Positions 1 through 11,172 of a DNA stretch of 11,172 nucleotides are shown here, piece after piece (the stretch's first letter is position 1; each line of letters begins with the position of its first letter). Source of the stretch: a virus (Duplodnaviria > Heunggongvirae > Uroviricota > Caudoviricetes); the IMG/VR virus record IMGVR_UViG_2778261217_000001, positions 1-11,172 of that record. One strand, written 5' to 3'. A model generated the notes under the pieces. That model did no database searches. It was given only the letters and a program-made list of their open reading frames with translations, and was not told where the DNA came from. The translations under genes were made by a program, and so were the position numbers.

Positions 1-1260
1 ATGAAGCTCAACGCCAGACAGGTCGAGACCGCAAAGCCAAAAGATAAAACCTACAAAATGGCCGATGGCGGCGGTTTATATCTTGAGGTTTCTGCAAAGG
101 GTTCTAAATACTGGCGCATGAAATACAGACGCCCCTCTGACAAAAAAGAGGATCGCCTCGCTTTTGGTGTTTGGCCTACCGTGACGCTTGCTCAGGCAAG
201 GGCAAAGCGTGATGAAGCTAAAAAGCTGTTAGTGCAGGGCATCGACCCAAAAGCCGAACAGAAAGAAGCTCAGGCCGTGAACTCGGGGGCATACACTTTC
301 GAAACTATCGCTCGTGAATGGCACGCCAGTAACAAGCGCTGGAGTGAAGACCATCGATCACGCGTTCTACGCTATCTTGAGCTTTATATTTTCCCCCATA
401 TCGGTTCGTCCGACATTCGGCAGCTTAAAACCAGCCACCTGTTAGCCCCGATTAAAAAAGTTGATGCCAGCGGCAAACACGATGTCGCTCAGCGCCTGCA
501 ACAGCGCGTCACGGCCATTATGCGTTATGCCGTACAGAATGATTACATCGACTCAAATCCAGCCAGCGATATGGCCGGTGCGCTATCGACAACCAAAGCG
601 CGACATTACCCGGCTTTACCTTCCAGCCGGTTCCCTGAGTTTCTTGCACATCTAGCTGCATATCGTGGCCGTGTAATGACACGGATCGCGGTCGAGCTTT
701 CCTTGCTAACTTTTGTGCGCTCCAGTGAGTTACGTTTCGCGCGTTGGGATGAATTCGACTTCGATAAATCTCTTTGGCGTATACCTGCAAAACGAGAAGA
801 AATTAAAGGCGTGCGTTATTCGTACCGAGGCATGAAGATGAAAGAGGAACATATCGTTCCGCTTAGTCGGCAGGCGATGATTTTATTGAATCAGTTAAAG
901 CAGATTAGTGGTGATAAAGAGCTGCTTTTTCCGGGGGATCACGACGCAACTAAGGTTATGAGTGAAAACACCGTAAACAATGCATTGCGTGCCATGGGTT
1001 ATGATACGAAAACTGAGGTCTGTGGGCATGGTTTTAGGACGATGGCGCGTGGTGCTTTGGGTGAGTCAGGGTTATGGAGTGATGATGCGATTGAGCGCCA
1101 GTTAAGCCACTCAGAACGTAACAATGTTCGTGCGGCGTATATTCATACTTCTGAGCATTTGGAAGAGCGTCGGCTTATGATTCAGTGGTGGGCTGATTAT
1201 TTGCAAGAGTGTTATAAAGGGCCAATAACGCCATACGAATTTGCAAAGAAATCTCAGTAG
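1..1260 (+). CDS. int: P4-type tyrosine integrase (site-specific recombinase)
   Basis: 419-aa ORF. N-terminus AKPKDKTYKMADGGGLYLEVSAKGSKYWRMKYR is typical of P4/CP4-57-type integrases; C-terminal catalytic motifs HGFRTMARG (H-x-x-R) and a tyrosine in AAYIHTSEH. ORF starts at window base 1, so no upstream tRNA/att context is visible. Confidence 0.9.
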   Translation: MKLNARQVETAKPKDKTYKMADGGGLYLEVSAKGSKYWRMKYRRPSDKKEDRLAFGVWPTVTLAQARAKRDEAKKLLVQGIDPKAEQKEAQAVNSGAYTFETIAREWHASNKRWSEDHRSRVLRYLELYIFPHIGSSDIRQLKTSHLLAPIKKVDASGKHDVAQRLQQRVTAIMRYAVQNDYIDSNPASDMAGALSTTKARHYPALPSSRFPEFLAHLAAYRGRVMTRIAVELSLLTFVRSSELRFARWDEFDFDKSLWRIPAKREEIKGVRYSYRGMKMKEEHIVPLSRQAMILLNQLKQISGDKELLFPGDHDATKVMSENTVNNALRAMGYDTKTEVCGHGFRTMARGALGESGLWSDDAIERQLSHSERNNVRAAYIHTSEHLEERRLMIQWWADYLQECYKGPITPYEFAKKSQ

Positions 1261-1280
1261 AAAACATAAAATCTATTAGT

Positions 1281-1296
1281 TGTGATAGATATCACT
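1281..1296. promoter_or_regulatory. CRP-like palindrome TGTGA-N6-TCACT upstream of the cargo operon (alternatively a weak int terminator stem)
   Basis: tgtgatagatatcact matches the CRP half-sites TGTGA / TCACA at 9 of 10 positions; perfect 6-bp inverted repeat gtgata/tatcac (1282..1287, 1290..1295); followed by a T-rich tract. Confidence 0.25.
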
Positions 1297-1406
1297 TTGT
1301 TTTTATTGAAATATAACGAGGTTTATGCATCATAGGGCATAGTGCAAGTATATAAATAGATAACAAGCTAATAATTTTTCAAGATAATTATATTAAGAGG
1401 TGTTTA

Positions 1407-1577
1407 ATGGAAGTTAACGTGGTCACCATTGTTTTGGGGGTGTGTTTGTTTGCTGCTATCGTTGCCGTGCCTGTATGGAAAATAAGCGCAAGATTTTTCT
1501 TCAAAGGAGGAGTAAAAAATAAACTCAAAAATGTTTCAATTAATGGCGATTATACTGGTCGAGATAAGAAAAATTAA
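1407..1577 (+). CDS. Small predicted membrane protein, 56 aa (not in ORF track)
   Basis: ATG at 1407 preceded by AAGAGG (1395..1400, 6-nt spacer). Translation MEVNVVTIVLGVCLFAAIVAVPVWKISARFFFKGGVKNKLKNVSINGDYTGRDKKN has one hydrophobic helix; ends in tandem stops TAA TAA. C-terminal 20 aa repeat the N-terminus of the next gene. Confidence 0.4.
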   Translation: MEVNVVTIVLGVCLFAAIVAVPVWKISARFFFKGGVKNKLKNVSINGDYTGRDKKN

Positions 1578-1652
1578 TAAGGCCATTGTATGGGTATTTT
1601 TAATAGGCTGAAAAATGTTTTTGTAAATGGTGATTATGTTGGAAGGGATAAA
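1509..1652 (+). repeat. In-frame imperfect tandem duplication (copies 1509..1568 and 1593..1652, offset 84 bp) spanning the end of the mini-ORF and the start of the 180-aa gene
   Basis: Peptide GVKNKLKNVSINGDYTGRDK versus GIFNRLKNVFVNGDYVGRDK (14/20 identical); the DNA copies align over about 46 bp at roughly 75% identity. Confidence 0.55.
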
Positions 1653-2132
1653 ATTGTCTATAATACAGAACCCACTCAGCTAATGCTATTGCAAGAGGAG
1701 TATCAGGAAGAGTTTAAAAATAGGCAAATTTGCACAGAAATGATTGATGAACTGAATCATTATAATACCAAAAAAAGTAAAGTGCGTGATTTGGAAGTTA
1801 AACTTAATGCTGCTGGGTACTCTTCCTTTCTTGACGAAGCTCGCGAGTTAAAAGAGTTGGTTTCGAAATTAATTATACAATATCAGCATTATCGCTCAGC
1901 ACAGAAAATAATCGCTTTTTTATTGTCAGACGTTCATTCAATTTTTCAATACAGAATAAAACCTCATATAGTAAATAAACAACAAGAGGCACAGATCCTT
2001 GAATTAATATATTTATATATAGAGTGTGAACTGAGTAGAAAGTTAGGTATAAATGCCTTGGAGATATATAATAGACAATTGCGTGGTATGGTTTTCTTCC
2101 TTACAGGAAACTGTCATTTGGAGTGGGAATAA
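1590..2132 (+). CDS. Hypothetical protein, 180 aa (cargo operon gene A; no recognisable motif)
   Basis: ORF in AT-rich island, same strand as and immediately after the mini-ORF; stop TAA overlaps the next start as TAATG (2130..2134). Confidence 0.6.
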   Translation: MGIFNRLKNVFVNGDYVGRDKIVYNTEPTQLMLLQEEYQEEFKNRQICTEMIDELNHYNTKKSKVRDLEVKLNAAGYSSFLDEARELKELVSKLIIQYQHYRSAQKIIAFLLSDVHSIFQYRIKPHIVNKQQEAQILELIYLYIECELSRKLGINALEIYNRQLRGMVFFLTGNCHLEWE

Positions 2133-2629
2133 TGTTATTATATAACAAGGCATTTGATATCAATCATACTATTCTAAGAATGTCTTCATGGCTGCTAAAT
2201 AGCTCTGAGCCGTTAATAAGTCTTGAGGGTATAAGAATATTTGACTTCTTAATAGCATTTCCTGAGTACATATCCAAGTTATCACTAGGGAAAGAATTAG
2301 TGAAGGAAAGAAATAAGTTCAAAAGGTTTTCTAACCCTTATAATGCTTTTGATCCTCAATCCTTGTTTCAGCAAATGGAAGGGGTGCAAAAATCTGCAAT
2401 TTGTTCTTTAGTAACAGCATCAGTTTTAGTAGAAATTAATAATGAATTATATGAAATAAAAAAAGATAAGTTATATGCGATTGGATTTACCAAAACCAAT
2501 CTTTTTGATAGCATAAACGAAGATGTGATCTCATTTATCAGTAACAATCTTGAGACATTACCTGTAACGGGAATAACTGGACTTAAGGCCGCTAGCAAAT
2601 TAATGAGTTTTAAATATGATCGTATATAA
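2132..2629 (+). CDS. Hypothetical protein, 165 aa (cargo operon gene B; ORF track starts it at GTG 2123)
   Basis: ATG at 2132 overlaps the upstream stop (TAATG); purine-rich ggagtggg at 2120..2127; 3' end overlaps the ATPase gene start by 14 nt. Confidence 0.6.
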   Translation: MLLYNKAFDINHTILRMSSWLLNSSEPLISLEGIRIFDFLIAFPEYISKLSLGKELVKERNKFKRFSNPYNAFDPQSLFQQMEGVQKSAICSLVTASVLVEINNELYEIKKDKLYAIGFTKTNLFDSINEDVISFISNNLETLPVTGITGLKAASKLMSFKYDRI

Positions 2630-4529
2630 TCCCACATTGAATATTAAAAAACTTTACGCATTCAAGGATGGTAAAGAGGTCATACACTTGAAGTTTCATA
2701 ATGGGCTGAATGTCATATATGGCTCGAACGGAAGCGGAAAAACCTCGGCAATTCAGTTACTCGCGTATGTTCTTGGTTCTACGATCTATAATTGGAAAGA
2801 AGAAGCAGGGAGTTGTGATTACGTTATAGCTGAAATTTACGCAAATGAGTCTACTATAACCATTCGTCGTGAGATAAGTGACACAATGGCAGGTATGAGC
2901 ATTTTTTTTGGTACATATGAAGAAAGTATCAAAGCAGGGAAAACTGGATGGTTTAGCTACCCCTACGCAATTTCTACTAACAAGGAAAGTTTTTCACAAC
3001 GTATCTTTGAAATCTTAAACATACCTGAGGCTAAATCTGACGGGATTAATAATCTTACTTTACATCAAATCCTAAGGCTGGTGTATAACAACCAATCTGA
3101 TTCTGCAACAAGTATATTTAACGACGAGAAGTTTGATTCCGCAATAAAACGAGAGTTTGTAAGTAATTATTTGCTCGGTTTGTATGATGATGATCTTTAT
3201 AATAATAAATTAGAGTATATTAAAAAAGAAAAAGAGCTAACAAAAACAATAGCTGAGTTAAAGGGTTTACTATTATTAATAGATGGTCAAGATCTTGATT
3301 TTAAATCTGATAATTTAGATAGCTTATCTGAACAATTACAGGGAAAGATCGATTCTATAATTGAAGAAATTGAAAAGTATAAAGAGTTAGATACACGGAT
3401 AAAATTTAGTAATGAAGTTAAGGCAATTAGTGCAGAACAATTAGTGAAGGATAAGAACAAGCTTATTGCCTTGGAGGTTGAATTAAGTCAAATACAATAT
3501 AATATTGTTGATTCAACCAAATTTATTGAAGAATTACAAAATAAATTACTTGCTATTAATGATTCAATTAAATTTAATAGTTCATTCAAGTTTAAAGAGT
3601 TCGATACCTGCCCATCATGTTTTACTAAGTTGCCAACTGCTCATGATGATAGTAAATGCTCTCTATGTGGTACAGAAGACCCGGATTCGGCAAAGCAAAT
3701 TAATTATGCTAGAATGAAAAATGAAATAATGATTCAAATCAACGAGTCACAAAATCTTTTGGAAAGGAATAAAATAAAGAGTGGTGAGATCTCAAAGCAA
3801 ATAAAATGCTTAAAAAGTGGAATGCGGAAAGAAGTTAACAAAGTTTCGGTTGTTAGTTCATCTTTGAATTCCCATGATGATAGCTTACTTTATAGTAAAT
3901 ATAAAGAGATTGGAGAGCTTGAAGAAAGACTAGATACTTTAGGTCGTATGGAGTCCGTTTATTCAAAAATTAAAACACTTCAGACTCTCCGCGATAGCTT
4001 ACAAGCCAGAGTTACATTTTTACAAGAAAACATTAGTAAAAAAGAACATGATCTTCAGTTAAAAATGCCAGCACTGAAAGAGAAAGTCAGTGAATATATG
4101 GAAGAAGTTTTAACTAAAGATGTCGAAAATATTGATGATCCTCATGATAAAGCTGAATTTAGTAACATAACTAGCATCGACTTTGATCTGGCTTCAAATA
4201 GGATTGTTGTCAATAATAAAGTCTCATTCTCTGAGAGCTCAATGTACTATCTTAATAATGCCCTGCATATAGCATTGCTAAAATTAAGTTTGGTTGATCC
4301 TAATGTAAGATTTCCACGTCTTTTAATTCTGGACGGTATAGAAAATGGTGGCATGGAAGATGCTCGCTCACAGGGTATCCAAAAAACTTTAAAAGAAATT
4401 TCTGATGAGTTTTGCGGGGTTCGGCATCAGATTATTATTACAACTAAAGGAATATACCATGCCGTTGATAATGATAAATATCGAGTTGGAGAAAAATTTA
4501 CTTCATCAAATCGTAGTTTAAATATGTGA
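2616..4529 (+). CDS. SMC/Rad50-like ABC ATPase, 637 aa (Walker A head, long coiled-coil, C-terminal Walker B-like segment)
   Basis: N-terminal LNVIYGSNGSGKTSAIQLLAYVLG (Walker A GSNGSGKT, SMC_N-like); long K/E/L/I-rich heptad-like middle containing CPSC-N13-CSLC (about 3609..3666); C-terminal FSESSMYYLNNALHIALL followed by RLLILDGIENGGMED (hydrophobic run ending in D, Walker B/D-loop-like). Confidence 0.8.
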   Translation: MIVYNPTLNIKKLYAFKDGKEVIHLKFHNGLNVIYGSNGSGKTSAIQLLAYVLGSTIYNWKEEAGSCDYVIAEIYANESTITIRREISDTMAGMSIFFGTYEESIKAGKTGWFSYPYAISTNKESFSQRIFEILNIPEAKSDGINNLTLHQILRLVYNNQSDSATSIFNDEKFDSAIKREFVSNYLLGLYDDDLYNNKLEYIKKEKELTKTIAELKGLLLLIDGQDLDFKSDNLDSLSEQLQGKIDSIIEEIEKYKELDTRIKFSNEVKAISAEQLVKDKNKLIALEVELSQIQYNIVDSTKFIEELQNKLLAINDSIKFNSSFKFKEFDTCPSCFTKLPTAHDDSKCSLCGTEDPDSAKQINYARMKNEIMIQINESQNLLERNKIKSGEISKQIKCLKSGMRKEVNKVSVVSSSLNSHDDSLLYSKYKEIGELEERLDTLGRMESVYSKIKTLQTLRDSLQARVTFLQENISKKEHDLQLKMPALKEKVSEYMEEVLTKDVENIDDPHDKAEFSNITSIDFDLASNRIVVNNKVSFSESSMYYLNNALHIALLKLSLVDPNVRFPRLLILDGIENGGMEDARSQGIQKTLKEISDEFCGVRHQIIITTKGIYHAVDNDKYRVGEKFTSSNRSLNM

Positions 4530-4539
4530 TTTTGAACAG

Positions 4540-4566
4540 GTGCGGCTTTAGCTGCACTTGTCTTTT
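4540..4566 (+). terminator. Candidate intrinsic terminator after the ATPase gene
   Basis: 7-bp stem gtgcggc/gctgcac (one G-U pair), loop ttta, then T-rich ttgtcttttg, 11 nt after the stop codon. Confidence 0.45.
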
Positions 4567-4761
4567 GAATAATAATATATCGCAATTATTAATTCCGTGT
4601 AACTTTATTATTGTCTATGTTATTTATAGATGTTGGCGTTATATTATCGGTCGATAATGGATTTGAGCTATTTTAGGTTAGTTAAAGTTGTTTTAAAAAT
4701 TCGATAAAGAAAATAATTTGATACTCACAAATCCTTTCTTAGCATACTTAAAGTACCTCTT

Positions 4762-4795
4762 ACGCGCGCAGCCCCGCCCGCCTGCCCGCTTCGCT
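4762..4795. other. GC-rich cos-like element (candidate packaging/cohesive-end site)
   Basis: acgcgcgcagccccgcccgcctgcccgcttcgc is an abrupt GC-rich block at the AT-rich island boundary; its reverse complement ggcgggcggggctgcgc resembles the P2/P4 cos end GGCGAGGCGGGGAAAGCAC as I recall it (partial match only). Confidence 0.25.
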
Positions 4796-4865
4796 TAACA
4801 GACTGGTTTTCATGCACCCCGTAAACCGTCTCAGAAGCCACCACACAAGGGCTTTCGCGTCAAAA

Positions 4866-4900
4866 ATGGCGCATGAGACTCATGCGTTTTCATGCGCCAT
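4866..4900. terminator. Nested palindrome / candidate bidirectional terminator or operator between convergent operons
   Basis: atggcgcatga (4866..4876) and tcatgcgccat (4890..4900) are perfect reverse complements; inner gcatgag-a-ctcatgc palindrome; A-run on the left and tttt inside. Confidence 0.35.
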
Positions 4901-4944
4901 AGATATGCACTCATACGCTCTCAGGCCAGCCAGGGAAAAGGCGT

Positions 4945-4969
4945 AAAAAATCCCGGTACTGGACCGGGA
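4945..4969 (-). terminator. Candidate intrinsic terminator of the sid-psu-delta operon
   Basis: Stem tcccggt/accggga (4951..4957, 4963..4969) with loop actgg; on the minus strand it is followed by TTTTTT (plus-strand aaaaaa 4945..4950); lies 23 nt past the delta stop. Confidence 0.45.
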
Positions 4970-4991
4970 CTTCGTGGTCGTATTTTGCTAA

Positions 4992-5264
4992 TCAGACAGG
5001 AATTTGCTGACGGTTTGACAGCTTTGACGCGGAGCCATAGCGATTGAGTGTTTGCTGTTGTTTTTCCGGTATTTTTGCTTTGTCTGATTCCTGTTCATTG
5101 CACTGAGGCTTCATAATGATCGTATCCACGCTTTCCAGTGCGGTAAATGTGCAGGAACATTCCAGATTCTGGCACTGATACCATGAGCGTTTAACCGACG
5201 GAGCTTCATAGGCGCTGGTTCTGGCGTGAGCGACCGCGCCACATTCAGGACACTTCAGGGCCAT
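4992..5264 (-). CDS. delta: Ogr/Delta-family zinc-finger late transcription activator, 90 aa (start moved to internal ATG)
   Basis: MALKCPECGAVAHARTSAYEAPSVKRSWYQCQNLECSCTFTALESVD carries the Ogr/Delta C-x2-C ... C-x4-C pattern. ATG at 5264..5262 is preceded by AAGGAG and sits 1 nt after the psu stop; the ORF-track start at 5366 would overlap psu by about 100 nt. Confidence 0.85.
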   Translation of the reverse strand: MALKCPECGAVAHARTSAYEAPSVKRSWYQCQNLECSCTFTALESVDTIIMKPQCNEQESDKAKIPEKQQQTLNRYGSASKLSNRQQIPV

Positions 5265-5265
5265 A

Positions 5266-5820
5266 TCAGCACACTCCTTTTTCATTAAGTCGGTTAAGGC
5301 GGGCCAGGAAAACTTTATGTTGTGCCGGGGTGAAACTGGCTGAAGCATCAGCGCGCATTGATGCATCCACCGTTAATCCGGTTTCGTCGATAATGCTCTT
5401 ATATGCTGCTGAAATTACCGGAGTACGGACTTCCGTTTGTCGGGCTACAGCGGTTCGTAATATTTTCATTGCCGCCTCAAGCCCGTATGGTGCACAAAGA
5501 AAAGGAGCCAGAGCGTCAGTGAGTGCATCACCATGCTCGCTCATGAAGTTTTCAGTTGCGCTTGTAACACAGCTTTCCAGCACAATCTGGTGAGCATAAA
5601 GACCATCCCGGGCGGCACAGTTAATCTGCCATTCGAGGAGTGCAAGACGCTCACGAAGATCCTCAAGTTGGCTGGCATATGCTGCGGGTTTTTCTTCAGT
5701 ATCCAGCAAAGCAGCCAGACGAAGCTGGCTGGTACTTTGCACATTACGTAGTGTCAGCCAGCTTTTTATTGCCGCGCGGTAATCGTTGAGAGCTTCCTGA
5801 GTAATGGTTCCGGTATTCAT
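5266..5820 (-). CDS. psu: Psu-like polarity suppression protein, 184 aa
   Basis: Size and motifs (EHGDALTDALAPFL, FTPAQHKVF) match my recollection of P4 Psu (about 190 aa); start ATG overlaps the sid stop (ATGA, 5817..5820). Confidence 0.75.
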   Translation of the reverse strand: MNTGTITQEALNDYRAAIKSWLTLRNVQSTSQLRLAALLDTEEKPAAYASQLEDLRERLALLEWQINCAARDGLYAHQIVLESCVTSATENFMSEHGDALTDALAPFLCAPYGLEAAMKILRTAVARQTEVRTPVISAAYKSIIDETGLTVDASMRADASASFTPAQHKVFLARLNRLNEKGVC

Positions 5821-6569
5821 TCCTTCTCGCCCCCTTTAGCCATGTCACGCTGTTTAAGCATCCGGGAACGTGCTGCAGGGCTGGGTGATTGTCTGGCATC
5901 CTGTATGGCTTTATCGTCCGCATAAATGCTGATCCCCGGCAGGGCAATATCATCCGTTGAAGATACGTTACAGAACAGTGCCGGAGTGGTGAGTTGCTCG
6001 CTGATAAATTGCTTCAGCACACTTTCGGGGTCGTTTACGGTATGAACTACACCGATAACAGAAGATGCGCTTCGGCCCAGAGTCATTTTCAGCAGTCCAA
6101 GGATCTGAATAAGTTTCTGGCCGTGTTCCTTCATAAACTCATTCCAGAGCCACACTGCATGAGTTTCAATCAGGTGATTATGTTCGCTGATGTAGCGGTT
6201 TGCAGCATCCGCAGTTTTCCATGGCAGGAATTCATTTTCTGCAGCCTGAGCAGCCAGCAAATCTTCGAACTCATCCAGTGTTTCGCGTCCGAGGGCGATT
6301 TCTGCCCGCAGTTTTTTCATTCGTGGCGTCATATTCCCCTGATTCTCACGAAACAGGTTTCGCCATTCATCATTAAGCGCCTGCGTCTCCGTTTTTGTAT
6401 CTTCCTGACGTTTACGGATAGTTTCAGTCATTGCAGCGGCTTCGGTTTGTTTTCGCCGTTCTTCCTGCCAGACAGCTTTTGCTGCCTTAACTTTTTCCAC
6501 CGCTTCGCGAATTTTCGGCGGGAGGGTGGGGGTAATGTTTGCATCAGAGATCTGGTTAACAGTTGTCAT
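5817..6569 (-). CDS. sid: Sid-like capsid size determination protein, 250 aa from ATG 6569 (ORF track starts it at TTG 6602)
   Basis: E/K/A/Q-rich helical protein at the head of the operon, coupled to psu; ATG at 6569 has GGAG with a 5-nt spacer, whereas 6602 is TTG without a Shine-Dalgarno. Assignment is by position and size; I do not recall a sequence motif for it. Confidence 0.5.
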   Translation of the reverse strand: MTTVNQISDANITPTLPPKIREAVEKVKAAKAVWQEERRKQTEAAAMTETIRKRQEDTKTETQALNDEWRNLFRENQGNMTPRMKKLRAEIALGRETLDEFEDLLAAQAAENEFLPWKTADAANRYISEHNHLIETHAVWLWNEFMKEHGQKLIQILGLLKMTLGRSASSVIGVVHTVNDPESVLKQFISEQLTTPALFCNVSSTDDIALPGISIYADDKAIQDARQSPSPAARSRMLKQRDMAKGGEKE

Positions 6570-6603
6570 GGCTGCTCCGGTAGTGTTTTGTTGTTGTGTC
6601 AAT

Positions 6604-6659
6604 TGTGCCGGGGTCCATACAAGCGCACTACCGAGGAGGATTGTGTCAGTGACTGAACA
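6604..6659 (-). promoter_or_regulatory. Two TGT-N12-ACA elements upstream of sid (candidate Delta/Ogr-responsive late promoter)
   Basis: tgtgccggggtccataca (6604..6621) and tgtgtcagtgactgaaca (6642..6659); TGT-N12-ACA is the consensus for Ogr/Delta-activated P2/P4 late promoters; the distal site centre is about 81 nt upstream of the sid ATG. Confidence 0.4.
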
Positions 6660-6726
6660 ATGACCTTGTTCTGGCTAGCCAGAGAAAGGTGTCATGTCTG
6701 ATCTATACGCTTCCTTTAATACATAC

Positions 6727-6930
6727 TATTCACTACTGTTCACTTCAATAAAAATATAGTAAATACATGTGGTTAAGTGGTGTAGTGTTTTAATTAAAGT
6801 GATCATCTACTGTTCATGACTGTTCACAGAGATAAAATTAAACATATATTTTTTTTTCATATAAGTCGCGATATTTATTTCAGTTTATTACTGGATCTTT
6901 TCTCCTCACCAATATTCACCAGTATTCAAT
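6727..6930. repeat. Iteron-like direct repeats in the AT-rich divergent region (candidate ori)
   Basis: Exact 8-mer actgttca three times in one orientation (6735..6742, 6809..6816, 6819..6826), plus tattcacc (6913..6920) and tattcaat (6923..6930); these resemble the P4 alpha-binding iteron TGTTCACC as I recall it. Confidence 0.35.
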
Positions 6931-7474
6931 ACATATTCTATGTAAAGAATAAAAGATGTCTTATGTCTGTTTAATAATTAAACATTCAACCTCCCTGCAC
7001 TCAGTTGCATTTCAGGAAAATATTCATAAAAATGAATTTGTCTGATGTTCATTAAACACATCCGGATACATGCGGAAGTAAGATGGTAATTTAATTTCTT
7101 TAATCATCGGATTTATTGATACATATGGTGAGCTGTTTATTTTTGGCCGTTTTTGGCTCTTTTATTAATCAGGTGTTGTCTTAGTGCTTATGATGTAACG
7201 CCCTGAATGATATGGGCTGGTTCAGATTTGAGCTGTGATCCTGCCTAGTGTAATAGACTTTTTTATTATTGATGCTCCTTATTATATTCCATAAAGGAAT
7301 TGTTTGTTTTTGTTCGTTTCATACGGTTTTTAGCTGTTTTATTTTTTGAGAAATCAACATTTCACACAAAATAAATAAAGCATGCGCGAGCCGCTTATAT
7401 AAACATAATAAGGAGCTACCTGAATCCGCATGGAATTGCCCGGACTGTTGTAAACATATTAGAGAGGTAGCCAG

Positions 7475-7735
7475 ATGAATAGTATTTCCGTTTCCACCCC
7501 GGCACCAGCTGCTCCGGTGCTCCCGGTTCCGGCTCAGCAGGAGCGCTTCATACGATTACCTGAAGTGATGCACCTTTGCGGGCTATCCCGTTCAACCATC
7601 TACGACCTTATCAGCCGCGATGCCTTCCCGCAGCAGATATCCCTGGGTGGAAAAAATGTGGCCTGGGTACAGTCGGAGGTCAGTGCATGGATGGCGGCGC
7701 GAATTGCTGCCCGCGAGCAAGGAGGCCATGCGTGA
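7475..7735 (+). CDS. alpA: AlpA-family (Vis-like) phage transcriptional regulator / excisionase-like DNA-binding protein, 86 aa
   Basis: [50 protein letters not shown] is the characteristic AlpA/MerR-like HTH core; SD gagg with 7-nt spacer before ATG 7475. Confidence 0.85.
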
Positions 7736-7770
7736 AACTTGCTTTGCAGTCTCATCTCCTTTTTTCTGGC

Positions 7771-7800
7771 TTGCGTCCTGATATCTTTTCCAGGTATAGT
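7771..7800 (+). promoter_or_regulatory. Candidate sigma70 promoter for the immunity/replication operon (PLE-like)
   Basis: TTGCGT (7771..7776), 18-nt spacer, TATAGT (7795..7800). Confidence 0.35.
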
Positions 7801-7830
7801 TTTCCCGCTGCCGCAAAATCGGCTGCCGGG

Positions 7831-7855
7831 CGTAGGAACCCGAGTTACTTATTGG
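7831..7855 (+). promoter_or_regulatory. seqA-like antisense target site (a/b boxes)
   Basis: gtaggaa (7832..7838) and cttattgg (7848..7855) are exact complements of ttcctac and ccaataag in the downstream antisense element. Confidence 0.4.
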
Positions 7856-7862
7856 CGACACC

Positions 7863-7885
7863 AGACGCGCCGTGCGTCTTTTTTT
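7863..7885 (+). terminator. Intrinsic terminator directly after the seqA-like site
   Basis: Stem agacgc/gcgtct (7863..7868, 7874..7879), loop gccgt, then seven T (7879..7885). Confidence 0.5.
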
Positions 7886-7949
7886 ACGTCGTTGCTCAGG
7901 CACACCCATTTTTCGGGCTGCGGTGCTTATACCTTAGCCCCTTTCAGAT

Positions 7950-8030
7950 AATGGTGGTCCGGGCGGGGCAGCCTTCGGGCTGGCCGGTTTCCAATAAGGC
8001 CGGTATTCCTACCCCCGTTCGGGTCACCAC
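7950..8030 (+). ncRNA. c4/CI-like antisense immunity RNA candidate (boundaries approximate)
   Basis: Structured GC-rich segment with a UUCG-loop hairpin (gggcagcc-ttcg-ggctggcc, 7966..7985) followed by ccaataag (7991..7998) and ttcctac (8006..8012), which pair with two bipartite target sites on the same strand; no plausible ORF. Confidence 0.4.
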
Positions 8031-8037
8031 CCATGAG

Positions 8038-8080
8038 CGTAGGAACTCCGGTGGTGGCATTTACCGCTACTTATTGGAGG
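8038..8080 (+). promoter_or_regulatory. seqC-like antisense target site overlapping the ribosome-binding site of the first small ORF
   Basis: gtaggaa (8039..8045) and cttattgg (8070..8077); the latter runs into GGAGG (8076..8080), the Shine-Dalgarno of the ATG at 8089. Confidence 0.4.
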
Positions 8081-8088
8081 TTGCCCTT

Positions 8089-8280
8089 ATGGCTACGATC
8101 CTCGCCCCGTCACATCCTCAATTTATATTTGTTTTTGCCGCCGTTCGTCGTGCAGAACGTAAACCACGTATCAGTATGCTGCGTATCATCGCCAGCAATG
8201 AGCATCATGCACGTCTTTCACTGGTCCATGAGTATGTGCTTTGTCTTGCTGCTCGCCTGCCTGTCCGGGAGGTGATCTAA
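8089..8280 (+). CDS. Small hypothetical protein, 63 aa (3' part of track ORF 7576..8280; first gene controlled by the antisense module)
   Basis: GGAGG with 8-nt spacer before ATG 8089; stop TAA overlaps the next start (TAATG 8278..8282); same RBS style as the two following ORFs. Confidence 0.4.
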
Positions 8281-8504
8281 TGAATCACGCCGCAATCTCT
8301 TATGACGATATTCTCCGCCTGAAGCATCTTCGTAACGTGGGAGAGTTTGTCACCGGAATGGCTGTTCTTCAGGATTGCTACGAAAAACCTGCCAGTGCTC
8401 AATGTGAACAACTGGTTTCCCTGATTTATCTGATGACAGAGCAGCTTGATGGCGTGGTACAGCGTTGCCAGGATGACCTCATGAACATGGAGGTGGTGCA
8501 ATGA
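8280..8504 (+). CDS. Small hypothetical protein, 74 aa (track ORF 8241..8504 trimmed to the ATG)
   Basis: GGAGG (8268..8272) with 7-nt spacer before ATG 8280; stop overlaps the next start as ATGA. Confidence 0.6.
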
Positions 8505-8824
8505 AATCACGTACTCTTTCCCTTTCACTTCGGGTAGCGTTGTATCGCCGCGCGGTAGCCTGCGCCTGGTTGAGTGCCTGCTATCAGCAAAACCGCCATC
8601 TGCAGCTCACTCTGGATGAAATTGAAACCGCTATTGCCCGTGAGCTTGAAGGATTTTATCTGCGACAGCACGGGCAAACAAAAGGCATGGAAATCGCCTG
8701 CGCCCTGCTTTCAGACCTGATGGAATACGGCCCTCTAATGTCCTGTCCCGCACTCTCCCAGCTCGGAATAGCCGTAATGGATGAGTTATGCGTCCGTCAC
8801 ATCAAAAAGCCGGTTTTACACTGA
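8501..8824 (+). CDS. Small hypothetical protein, 107 aa
   Basis: GGAGG (8489..8493) with 7-nt spacer; ATGA overlap with the upstream stop; ends 14 nt before the primase start. Confidence 0.6.
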
Positions 8825-8838
8825 GGGAGAACTGCGTC

Positions 8839-11172
8839 ATGTCAGGAATGAAAGTCAGTCAGGCCGTGAAGGCTGCCCGCGGTCACTGGGCTCAGATTCT
8901 GCCAGCGCTGGGCGTGAATATATTGAAAAATCGCCATCAGCCTTGCCCGGTCTGTGGCGGTAAAGATCGTTTTCGCTTCGACGATCAGGAAGGACGCGGA
9001 ACATGGTTCTGCAATCAGTGCGGAGCCGGGGATGGTTTAGCGCTTGTCACCAGGGCACTGAATGTGGATATCAGTGAAGCAGCTGACAGGATACATGGAC
9101 TGACACATGATCTGTCTATAGTTAATTCCGAGGTCAGGACGTTAACCGCCGATACCGATAGCGGGAAAGATGCAGCGGCAGCACTTGCCGCGCGACTGCT
9201 GCAAGCCTCGCGTGAATCTGCCGGAAACACTTATCTTACACATAAAGGTTTCCCGGAGCATATTTGCCATGAGCTGACTTCAGCTCATAAGGCCGGTGGT
9301 GTGATGTTCCGCCCCGGTGATTTGATCGTCCCACTCTATAACGCTGACGGGGAGCTGGTGAATATTCAGCTTATCAGTGGCAATGGTAGCAAGTGTTTTC
9401 TTAAAGGAGGTCAGGTTAAGGAGGCCTATCATCTGATAGAAGGGGGCGGGAGTTCTGTAAGAAGGATTTGGATTGCGGAAGGTTACGCCACGGCGCTTAC
9501 CATTCATTATTTGACAGGAGAAGCCGTCATGGTGGCATTTTCGTCGGTCAACTTTCTTTCTCTGAGCAGCGTTGCCCATAATAAGTATCCTGGATATCAG
9601 TTAATTATTGCAGCGGACCGCGATCTGAATGGTTCAGGCCAGAACAGGGCTGAAACTGCTGCAAAAGCGAGTCAGTGTGACATTGTGCTGCCACCGGTTT
9701 TTGGTGACTGGAATGATGCGCTTACCCAATACGGAGAGGAATCCACCAGGACGGCAATTCTTGAGGCTTTGAAGCCACATAACGCCAGTCCTTTCGACAC
9801 AATGAGTGAAGCAGAATTCACAGCGATGAGTGTCAGCGAAAAAGCTCAGAGGGTTCGGGAGCATTACAGGGATGCACTGGCGGTTGATTCGAACGGGCAG
9901 CTTTTATCCCGCTACGAGTCTGGAGCGTGGAAAGTTATTTCTCAGTCAGATTTTGCCCGAGATGTCGCAGCCCTTTTCCAGCGCCTCGGGGCACCGTTTT
10001 CCTCAGGAAAAATTGCCTCACTGGTGGAAACATTAAAGTTAATTGTTCCGCAGCAGCAAAATCCGTCACGTCATCTGATTGGTTTTCGTAATGGCGTTCT
10101 CGATACGCGAACAGGGCTTTTTAGTCCGCACTGTAAAGAGAACTGGCTGCGTACCCTGTGTGAAGTCGATTTCACGCCACCGGTAAAGGGGGAAACGCTT
10201 GAAACTCATGCCCCGGCATTCTGGCGTTGGCTGGACCGGGCCGCCGGACACAAGCCAGCAAAACGCGACATTATTCTTGCAGCGTTATTTATGGTGCTGG
10301 CGAACCGCTATGACTGGCAGCTCTTTCTGGAAGTGACTGGCCCTGGTGGAAGTGGCAAAAGTATTCTGGCTGAAATTGCGACCATGCTTGCTGGAGAGGA
10401 TAACGCCACCTCTGCGACCATTGAAACGCTGGAGTCCCCGCGAGAACGTGCGGCTCTGATAGGTTTTTCTCTTATTCGCCTGCCTGATCAGGAGAAGTGG
10501 AGCGGCGACGGCGCCGGGCTTAAGGCTATAACTGGTGGCGATGCAGTATCTGTGGACCCCAAATATCAGAATGCTTATTCAACACATATTCCGGCGGTTA
10601 TCTTGGCCGTAAATAATAATCCTATGCGCTTCACTGATCGCAGTGGTGGTGTGTCCCGCAGGAGAGTTATTCTGCATTTTCCTGAGCAGATAGCACCGGA
10701 AGAACGCGATCCGCAGTTGAAAGATAAAATTGCACGAGAACTGGCTGTGATTGTTCGTCAGCTCATGCAGCGTTTCAGCGATCCGATGAGCGCCAGAACA
10801 TTGCTTCAGTCGCAGCAGAATTCTGATGAGGCTCTCACCATCAAGCGTGATGCTGATCCAGCATTTGATTTTTGTGGCTACCTTGAGGCATTACCTGACA
10901 CCAACGGCATGTTTATGGGGAACGCCAATATTGTCCCGCGCCAGCCACGTACGTACCTTTACCATGCCTATCTTGTATACATGGAGGCTAATGGCTTTAA
11001 AAATACCCTTAGCCTGACAATGTTTGGCAAAGGGCTACCAGTTATGCTGAAGGAATACGGGCTAAATTATGAGAAGCGGCGAACTAATCAGGGAATGCAG
11101 ACTAACCTCACTTTAAAAGAGGAAAGTAATGCAGACTGGCTTCCCAAGTGTGATGAGCCAACAATCAAATAA
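8839..11172 (+). CDS. alpha: P4 alpha-type primase/helicase, 777 aa (start moved to ATG 8839)
   Basis: N-terminal zinc-binding motif CPVCGGKDRFRFDDQEGRGTWFCNQCG; acidic TOPRIM-like region (IIAADRD); Walker A VTGPGGSGKSILAEIA in the C-terminal half; SD gggaga at 8825..8830. The 777-aa length equals P4 alpha as I recall it. Confidence 0.9.
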   Translation: MSGMKVSQAVKAARGHWAQILPALGVNILKNRHQPCPVCGGKDRFRFDDQEGRGTWFCNQCGAGDGLALVTRALNVDISEAADRIHGLTHDLSIVNSEVRTLTADTDSGKDAAAALAARLLQASRESAGNTYLTHKGFPEHICHELTSAHKAGGVMFRPGDLIVPLYNADGELVNIQLISGNGSKCFLKGGQVKEAYHLIEGGGSSVRRIWIAEGYATALTIHYLTGEAVMVAFSSVNFLSLSSVAHNKYPGYQLIIAADRDLNGSGQNRAETAAKASQCDIVLPPVFGDWNDALTQYGEESTRTAILEALKPHNASPFDTMSEAEFTAMSVSEKAQRVREHYRDALAVDSNGQLLSRYESGAWKVISQSDFARDVAALFQRLGAPFSSGKIASLVETLKLIVPQQQNPSRHLIGFRNGVLDTRTGLFSPHCKENWLRTLCEVDFTPPVKGETLETHAPAFWRWLDRAAGHKPAKRDIILAALFMVLANRYDWQLFLEVTGPGGSGKSILAEIATMLAGEDNATSATIETLESPRERAALIGFSLIRLPDQEKWSGDGAGLKAITGGDAVSVDPKYQNAYSTHIPAVILAVNNNPMRFTDRSGGVSRRRVILHFPEQIAPEERDPQLKDKIARELAVIVRQLMQRFSDPMSARTLLQSQQNSDEALTIKRDADPAFDFCGYLEALPDTNGMFMGNANIVPRQPRTYLYHAYLVYMEANGFKNTLSLTMFGKGLPVMLKEYGLNYEKRRTNQGMQTNLTLKEESNADWLPKCDEPTIK

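Follow-up and report, generated by a model that had tools for sequence, protein, structure and literature searches.

The DNA analysed here (11,172 nucleotides, positions 1 to 11,172 of the IMG/VR record IMGVR_UViG_2778261217_000001; referred to below as the window) represents a P4-like satellite located at tRNA-Leu in Escherichia coli. Between its integrase gene, int, and a cos block lies an AT-rich cargo with four plus-strand genes, which form a short system of the Lamassu (ABC-3C) family with a four-gene operon. We describe this operon and in particular its first gene, orf56, which encodes a small membrane protein whose tail matches the head of the protein encoded next to it. The four genes are tightly packed; they are joined successively by a 12-nt gap, a 1-nt overlap, and a 14-nt overlap, and they are followed by a terminator-like hairpin.

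The four-gene Lamassu operon

The operon is preceded by an AT-rich leader (1261-1406, plus strand) containing a Shine-Dalgarno sequence (AAGAGG, 1395-1400). This leader is not present in the copy of the cassette from Morganella morganii described below. Promoter-like hexamers at 1306-1333 and 1360-1388 were no commoner than expected by chance, and no promoter is claimed. The first gene, orf56 (1407-1577, plus strand), encodes a single-pass membrane protein of 56 residues. It has a transmembrane segment at approximately residues 4-24 (hydrophobicity of 3.0 over 17 residues), a basic linker, and the C-terminal motif KLKNVSINGDYTGRDKKN. No family of Pfam, NCBIfam, or PADLOC was matched by this protein. 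It is annotated in most strains as a hypothetical protein (WP_001472782.1) and is absent from the RefSeq annotation of strain elppa5 (locus L001, 3761-4090); the annotation pipelines are inconsistent in this respect.

The second gene (1590-2132, plus strand) encodes an LmuA-like protein of 180 residues, in which residues 67-179 match the Pfam family CTD9 (PF20285, E = 6.4e-29). An N-terminal motif, RLKNVFVNGDYVGRDK, is located at approximately residues 6-21 on a flexible tail and is followed by the helical CTD9 body. The motif is conserved in the CTD9 family, and Asp15 and Gly18 are invariant. The AlphaFold2 model (predicted local distance difference test score, pLDDT, of 84) has low confidence at residues 1-28 and contains a hairpin at residues 10-17. 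A search for an enzymatic N-terminal domain gave no domain match in the 66 residues ahead of CTD9; the protein is thus an LmuA-like protein without an effector domain. A Foldseek search with the CTD9 model against the PDB returned nothing better than E = 2.

The third gene (2132-2629, plus strand), whose start overlaps the preceding stop codon (TAATG), encodes LmuC, the ABC-3C middle component 5, with 165 residues. It matches Pfam MC5 (PF20291, E = 2.2e-31) over its full length and is also recognized by RefSeq, and there is a weak match to the LmuC model of PADLOC (E = 0.0023). The fourth gene (2616-4529, plus strand) encodes a short LmuB of 637 residues, an SMC/Rad50-like ABC ATPase that matches the PADLOC LmuB model at residues 8-623 (E = 8.1e-35). 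It has a Walker A motif at residues 36-43, CxxC motifs at 332 and 348 that correspond to a zinc hook, a signature-like FSESS sequence at 538-542, and a Walker B motif (LLILD) at 569-573. These motifs are invariant across 34 homologues. The AlphaFold2 model of LmuB (pLDDT of 83) shows a head, a coiled coil, and a zinc-hook apex. Its best Foldseek matches were the solved Lamassu LmuB structures 9hqu, 9uxh, 9hqx, 9nyg, and 9ux7 (E of 3e-19 to 2e-13), ahead of Rad50 and SMC. Directly after LmuB, a terminator-like stem-loop with a T tract (4536-4561, plus strand) has an 11-pair stem with six G-C pairs, followed by CTTTTGAATA. The remainder of the cargo is an AT-rich non-coding tail (4562-4761) that is cargo-specific, being present neither in the relatives nor in the Morganella copy.

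The cargo is called a short Lamassu because of the LmuB, MC5, and CTD9 matches together with the structural matches of LmuB to the solved Lamassu complexes. At the single-sequence level, LmuB, the CTD9 family profile, and MC5 gave no match to PDB chains, and the Lamassu structures were retrieved only by the LmuB family profile and the fold search. Searches with Pfam, PADLOC, and related profiles found no enzymatic effector domain in any of the four cargo proteins. In canonical Lamassu, such as V. cholerae DdmABC and S. enterica LmuACB, a Cap4 nuclease is fused to the C-terminal domain, whereas the LmuB fold, the middle component, and the logic of sequestering and then releasing an effector are shared with the present system.

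By description, the cargo fits Clade O of Lamassu, which has an effector-less LmuA with intact LmuC and LmuB and for which an apparent loss of the effector domain has been described (Haudiquet et al. 2025, PMC12663957). The likeness extends to an LmuA consisting only of the C-terminal domain, an intact LmuC, an LmuB of about 600 residues with CxxC motifs, and the order LmuA-LmuC-LmuB. Clade O was published with three genes, and the membrane protein is unmentioned there; in contrast, a fourth gene with a matched motif lies upstream in the present system. The cargo is therefore a rare member of a described but unexplained clade, and what is new is a conserved, often unannotated fourth gene that is linked by its motif to the LmuA-like protein in a clade reported as effector-less.

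A membrane protein matched to the LmuA-like protein

The head of the 180-residue protein (RLKNVFVNGDYVGRDK) repeats the tail of orf56 (KLKNVSINGDYTGRDKKN) over a motif of about 20 residues. The relationship was investigated in 80 loci that encode CTD9 relatives and come from many phyla; 77 of them encode the short form and three encode a protein with an extended N-terminus. MC5 is found in 78 and LmuB in 79 of the 80 loci, and the identity of LmuB decreases to as low as 27%. With the strict pattern, a same-strand open reading frame (ORF) with a GDxxGRD-type C-terminal motif lies immediately upstream in 63 of the 80 loci. Nine further loci have an upstream partner with a variant motif, and loci L015 and L068 have a partner that was missed by the initial filters. 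Three loci from Prevotella and Parabacteroides (L067, 1-531; L079, 2676-3218; L085, 5272-5796) have a soluble upstream partner of about 175 residues. All 77 short-form loci therefore have an upstream partner with the shared motif. In 73, it is an intact small membrane protein; that of L083 is apparently frameshifted. No partner was found in the three loci (3/3) in which the extended N-terminus of the CTD9 protein shows HNH-like sequence features.

The position of the partner is specific. Among 6415 small ORFs in the 80 loci, only 63 combine a transmembrane segment with the C-terminal motif, and 62 of these 63 are located immediately upstream of the CTD9 gene. The pairing is also specific to the locus: the tail-to-head score averaged 40 in cognate pairs, compared with 28 in non-cognate pairs and 15.7 with shuffled tails (p <= 2e-4 by permutation). 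Distinct motif types (GDxxGRD, QYQSGGNMT, and GNPGxGNxFQ...FNPNA) are each shared within their own locus. The small membrane partners have a median length of 58 residues, and mostly -4 to +12 nt separate the partner gene from the CTD9 gene. The tail is placed in the cytoplasm by the positive-inside rule in 64 of 69 partners, and four partners carry the motif twice. The motif is rich in Gly, Asn, Asp, and Val, yet the tails are rich in Lys (14.9%). The small membrane gene belongs to the Lamassu module, and its tail shares a motif with the LmuA-like head across phyla; very probably, orf56 is a functional component of the system. One partner has the inverted arrangement, with an N-terminal motif and a C-terminal hydrophobic segment (L073, 5764-5946).

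Two trivial origins of the similarity were considered and rejected. In the window, orf56 and the CTD9 gene share a reading frame (1575-1592, spacer TAA TAA GGC CAT TGT). Readthrough of the stop codons to give a fused transmembrane-LmuA protein was rejected because, in other loci, the length of the intergenic gap is not divisible by three. A direct repeat at the DNA level was also rejected: the two motif-coding stretches are only about 63% identical and have synonymous differences, and therefore the motif is conserved at the protein level.

Clustering of the CTD9 subfamily at 50% identity gave 576 clusters, and nearly all of the proteins have about 180-200 residues. In rare long relatives, CTD9 is preceded by PNP_UDP_1 (E = 1e-20) or by a weak HNH match that stays below threshold. 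The motif thus occupies the place of the enzyme in other LmuA proteins, and for this reason we interpret it as a probable adaptor to a separate effector. The soluble partners of about 175 residues gave no Pfam match; their N-terminal sequence (I.G.PGTGNTFQE...FNPNAT) corresponds to that at the N-terminus of the CTD9 protein of the same locus. Judging from these sequences, the soluble partners may follow the same adaptor principle with a different effector.

The function of canonical Lamassu provides a framework for the present system. LmuB2-LmuC sequester monomeric LmuA via its C-terminal domain, DNA-end sensing and ATP release LmuA, and the freed C-terminal domains oligomerize and gather the N-terminal effector domains (PMC12663957; 10.1101/2025.03.14.643221). 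Other domains can freely take the place of the LmuA effector domain, and higher-order cyclic oligomers are predicted for CTD9 proteins (PMC12663957; 10.1101/2025.03.14.643221). By analogy, LmuB2-LmuC would hold the LmuA-like protein in a monomeric state, and phage DNA ends or replication intermediates would trigger its release. The freed protein would oligomerize via CTD9, and its N-terminal motifs would become clustered. The predicted orientation of orf56 is N-out/C-in, with a cytoplasmic tail. The clustered motifs could then pair with their identical counterparts on the tails of the membrane proteins, or template them, by a contact that may be amyloid-like or a simple beta-augmentation. The transmembrane helices would be gathered, a membrane lesion would form, and the infection would be aborted.

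We consider it rather probable, on the whole, that the hotspot cargo is a four-gene Lamassu in which the LmuA-like protein is coupled by the matched motif to a separate membrane effector. The more specific role of orf56 as an executioner coupled through this motif, which is drawn by analogy, has about even chances. The broader form, in which an SMC-family sensor signals via a short matched motif to a separately encoded killer (the 56-residue membrane protein or, in some Bacteroidales, the soluble protein of about 175 residues), is more tentative still. Defence and killing as functions of the system are inferred from sequence, synteny, and analogy.

A matched-motif architecture of this type functions in antiphage defence in E. 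coli in the Bab/Agp system (10.1101/2024.11.07.622273). Like Bab/Agp, the Bell/NLR pairs of bacterial amyloid signalling sequences (BASS), and fungal HET-S/NWD2 (10.1101/2024.11.07.622273; 10.1101/2020.01.06.895854), the present genes are adjacent, with the motif at the C-terminus of the candidate effector and the N-terminus of its partner. The candidate effector is likewise small, with an N-terminal hydrophobic helix and a C-terminal motif of about 20-25 residues. In amyloid signalling pairs, the motif on the effector side is sometimes doubled (here in L069, L071, and L072), and the protein on the sensor side oligomerizes on activation. In contrast to these pairs, the sensor is an SMC-like Lamassu rather than an NLR or TPR protein, and the effector candidate is a bare transmembrane helix with a tail and no Bell/HeLo domain (no Pfam match). 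The motif is also more charged and flanked by Lys.

Several observations weigh against the proposed coupling. Published bacterial amyloid signalling motifs are depleted in Lys, whereas the motif here is charged and the tails are Lys-rich, at the level given above. For a pore former, a transmembrane helix of 20 residues with a tail of 30 is small. The AlphaFold2 confidence is low precisely in the motif region of the 180-residue protein, and Foldseek did not match the CTD9 model to the C-terminal domains of solved LmuA proteins, which belong to other CTD families, even though these entries are in the library. No protection against 28 phages was seen with a similar P4-borne "Lamassu missing a known effector" (PMC13586616), which may or may not be the present cassette and may have been cloned without the small ORF. 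Finally, the motif-matched partner is unmentioned in the accessible Lamassu literature; the founding ABC-3C paper (Krishnan et al. 2020) lies outside that scope, and priority is therefore uncertain.

The same membrane protein could instead be a tether or a negative regulator rather than a killer, with the antiviral effect coming from the action of LmuB/LmuC on DNA. As a tether, it would use the shared motif to keep the Lamassu complex attached to the inner membrane, for instance close to phage DNA as it enters; as a regulator, it would hold the freed LmuA-like protein inactive. The conservation of the partner and the matching of the motifs fit this explanation equally well, the very small size of the membrane protein favours it, and the soluble partners of Prevotella and Parabacteroides show that the motif can recruit non-membrane proteins. 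However, relatives carry effector-type domains (PNP_UDP_1 at E = 1e-20, and HNH-like) at the exact position of the motif. In solved Lamassu, moreover, LmuB/LmuC sense and the N-domain of LmuA executes. The loci with a fused HNH-like domain have no partner, and this complementary pattern is expected of a replacement effector and not of an accessory tether; a replacement effector is therefore favoured. We regard the tether or regulator as unlikely.

An effector-less or decaying system is a further alternative. The LmuA-like protein would then be a remnant, orf56 would be incidental, and the cassette would be non-functional or a mere DNA-binding block. The description of the clade as lacking an effector domain by Haudiquet et al. 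is in line with this, as are the lack of protection by the similar P4 system mentioned above (PMC13586616) and the IS1 within LmuB in one of nine E. coli copies. However, the form of about 180 residues is dominant across the 576 clusters, the N-terminal motif and the partner ORF are kept in many phyla down to the lowest LmuB identity, and LmuB shows no variation in its catalytic and zinc-hook residues. Retention of a transmembrane helix, a positive-inside topology, and a matching motif would not be expected of a chance ORF. Decay is consequently a very improbable explanation of the four-gene cassette.

If the coupling of the LmuA-like protein to a separate membrane effector is correct, the minimal unit to clone and test would consist of four genes instead of three, and the models of defence-finding programs should include the small gene. 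It would explain the "effector-less" Clade O and the possible inactivity of three-gene constructs. Lamassu would be added to the systems in which a membrane effector receives its signal through homotypic peptide motifs, and amyloid-like or homotypic-motif signalling would be extended from NLR-type to SMC-type sensors.

Exchange of the cargo and edges of the island

The cargo is flanked on the left by int (1-1260, plus strand), which encodes a P4-type tyrosine integrase of 419 residues (Pfam Arm-DNA-bind_3, Phage_int_M, and Phage_integrase), and on the right by the cos block (4762-4800, core at approximately 4772-4794). These are the left flank and the right boundary of the cos-proximal defence hotspot of P4, at which unrelated systems are found in near-identical backbones (Rousset et al. 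2022, PMC9122126). Rapid swapping of cargo at this hotspot is the subject of a 2026 study in Nucleic Acids Research (PMC13586616).

Segmentation of the GC content over the window by likelihood change-points, cross-checked with a 300-nt GC profile, gave five segments. The GC content is 0.495 at 1-1195, 0.319 at 1196-4755 (the low-GC island), 0.502 at 4756-6714, 0.314 at 6715-7487 (a second AT-rich block), and 0.518 at 7488-11172. The log-likelihood gains at the left and right edges of the island are 58 and 87, respectively, and the steps are likewise visible in the 300-nt profile. The compositional island reported by the first-pass annotation is thus confirmed, as is its claim that AT-rich codons dominate. 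The GC content at third codon positions is 0.27-0.33 in the four cargo genes and 0.41-0.59 in backbone genes. The residues Phe, Tyr, Met, Ile, Asn, and Lys, which have AT-rich codons, account for 36.4% of the cargo proteins versus 22.4% of the backbone proteins, while Gly, Ala, Arg, and Pro account for 14.3% versus 28.2%. Tracts of at least 8 nt consisting only of A and T occur 17 times per kb in the cargo and 1.5-3.3 times per kb in the backbone.

Comparison with related satellites showed that this DNA is exchanged. Satellites that are 99.1-99.7% identical to the window over the stretch running from the cos block through alpha have, in place of this cargo, SIR2 with an ATPase, a nuclease with a helicase, or three hypothetical genes. 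The proposal of laterally acquired cargo therefore holds, since unrelated genes occupy the same place in near-identical satellites. A related satellite is present in 1929 of 5426 complete E. coli genomes, and this cargo DNA is present in 8-9 of the 5426. The low-GC block is almost certainly swappable cargo of a P4-like satellite at the published hotspot, and the island as such is an ordinary example of that hotspot. It resembles the published cases in its locus between int and cos/psu, in the sharp break at cos, and in the unrelated cargos within near-identical backbones. It also resembles P4 itself, in which the GC content is 0.36 in the gop/beta/cII cargo, 0.40 at the origin, and 0.54-0.59 in the backbone. 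Unlike the published cases, this cargo is rare, and neither composition nor a graded left junction in int is discussed in PMC9122126 and PMC13586616. In one of the nine E. coli carriers (GPEC60-12-649; L006, 10509-11206), an IS1 lies within LmuB and an IS3 lies in sid of the same satellite.

The cassette is also found outside E. coli. In Enterobacter roggenkampii, the same cassette of 56-, 180-, 165-, and 637-residue proteins has a P4-type int on one side and delta/psu on the other and occupies a different chromosomal site. In Morganella morganii (L091 and L092, 8001-11126), the four-gene cassette has 77% DNA identity and is flanked by icd and by the int/Exc end of a lambdoid-type prophage. 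The homology with the Morganella DNA covers exactly 1407, the ATG of orf56, to 4532, three bases beyond the LmuB stop codon. Because the homology begins at this ATG, orf56 belongs to the travelling module, and the four-gene module moves among different kinds of mobile element. The GC content of the cassette is 0.28-0.33 versus 0.46-0.61 in the flanks, and homologous cassettes are AT-richer than their own flanks in 62 of 64 loci.

Alignment to related satellites, which the first-pass annotation had suggested for locating the swap junctions, revealed two different edges. The right edge is exact: against satellites with other cargo, there is no similarity up to approximately 4761 and invariance from 4763. 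The GC change-point at 4756 is close to this break, and the abrupt return of GC-rich sequence that had been placed at 4762 is correct. At the left edge, homology to other satellites is lost directly after the int stop codon, at 1261, in agreement with an island start placed just after int. However, the GC drop and the accelerated divergence begin approximately 65 nt earlier, within the 3' end of int (1196-1260), and there is no sharp break; the identity of int to its relatives declines from about 95% at the 5' end to about 84% at the 3' end. The int gene is 8-10% diverged from those of the L002-L004 satellites, the other backbone of which is less than 1% diverged, and the identity drops steadily toward the cargo.

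In the P4 reference, the linear virion DNA runs from cos through gop/beta/cII to int. Because it starts at cos, followed by the cargo and then int, the cargo is a terminal segment of the packaged linear genome. The junction pattern suggests, as our own inference and not as a published result, that cargo exchange at the hotspot needs just one crossover anywhere in int, the other end being fixed by cos. A cos-fixed end together with crossovers spread through int would explain the sharp right edge and the graded left edge.

Low GC content had been read as a signature of foreign DNA. This is valid for 1196-4755 and fails for the second AT-rich block (6715-7487), which is equally AT-rich and is conserved backbone rather than cargo; therefore, low GC alone is no marker of cargo. 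The second block is kept in all relatives compared. It occupies the interval from sid to vis, where P4 has its replication origin (annotated between ORF88 and sid in the P4 reference). Within the block are three pairs of iteron-like octamers, T(A/G)TTCAC, located at 6727/6737, 6811/6821, and 6913/6923, which resemble the type-1 iteron of P4.

A further proposal was that H-NS binds the AT-rich cargo and keeps it silent until the satellite is induced. Low GC content and abundant A/T tracts are typical of H-NS targets in E. coli. The cargo agrees with this, having a GC content of 0.32 in a host of about 0.51 and A/T tracts that are 6-10 times denser than in the backbone. However, the high-affinity consensus of H-NS is not enriched (14 matches versus 18.3 expected), and the conserved origin block is just as AT-rich as the cargo. 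A sensor of incoming phage must, moreover, be present beforehand. Systems of the P4 hotspot protect uninduced E. coli K-12 from their native promoters (PMC9122126), which argues against silence until induction and fits a defence that is present before infection. Silencing by H-NS until induction is quite unlikely, and the statement that the cargo is "silenced until induced" is unsupported. Partial dampening by H-NS is possible and is compatible with a motif-coupled four-gene Lamassu.

The satellite backbone

The genes and elements of a P4-like satellite, namely int, the cos core, delta, psu, sid, vis, the C4 RNA, and alpha, were all found in order by Pfam, Rfam, RefSeq, and alignment of cos. 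An identical element in E. coli adjoins tRNA-Leu and is flanked by ahr and other islands. In strain elppa5 (L001, 14289-15497), a second tyrosine integrase is encoded directly downstream of the satellite, which indicates tandem islands at tRNA-Leu.

The cos core has 21 of 24 nt identical to the P4 cos junction, with a local-alignment score of 31 compared with a maximum of 24 in 500 shuffles. This match bears out the cos-like block of the first-pass annotation. A BLAST search of the P4 cos junction against the window gave no match, and the similarity emerged only by the dedicated local alignment.

Three helper-exploitation genes follow on the minus strand: delta (4992-5264), an Ogr/Delta zinc finger gene identified by Pfam Ogr_Delta and RefSeq; psu (5266-5820), identified by Pfam Psu and RefSeq; and sid (5817-6545, or to 6602 from a TTG start), identified by RefSeq. 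The gene order is cos-delta-psu-sid here versus sid-delta-psu-cos in the P4 reference.

The left operon is on the plus strand. It begins with vis/AlpA (7475-7735; Pfam and RefSeq), an isrK-like RNA (7807-7884; Rfam), and the C4/CI immunity RNA (7947-8034; Rfam). The operon (7475-11172) also includes small ORFs, and alpha (8839-11172; Pfam and RefSeq) encodes a primase-helicase of 777-794 residues. The ORF of an "Icd-like" protein in RefSeq (7735-8283) spans both the isrK-like and the C4/CI RNAs of Rfam.

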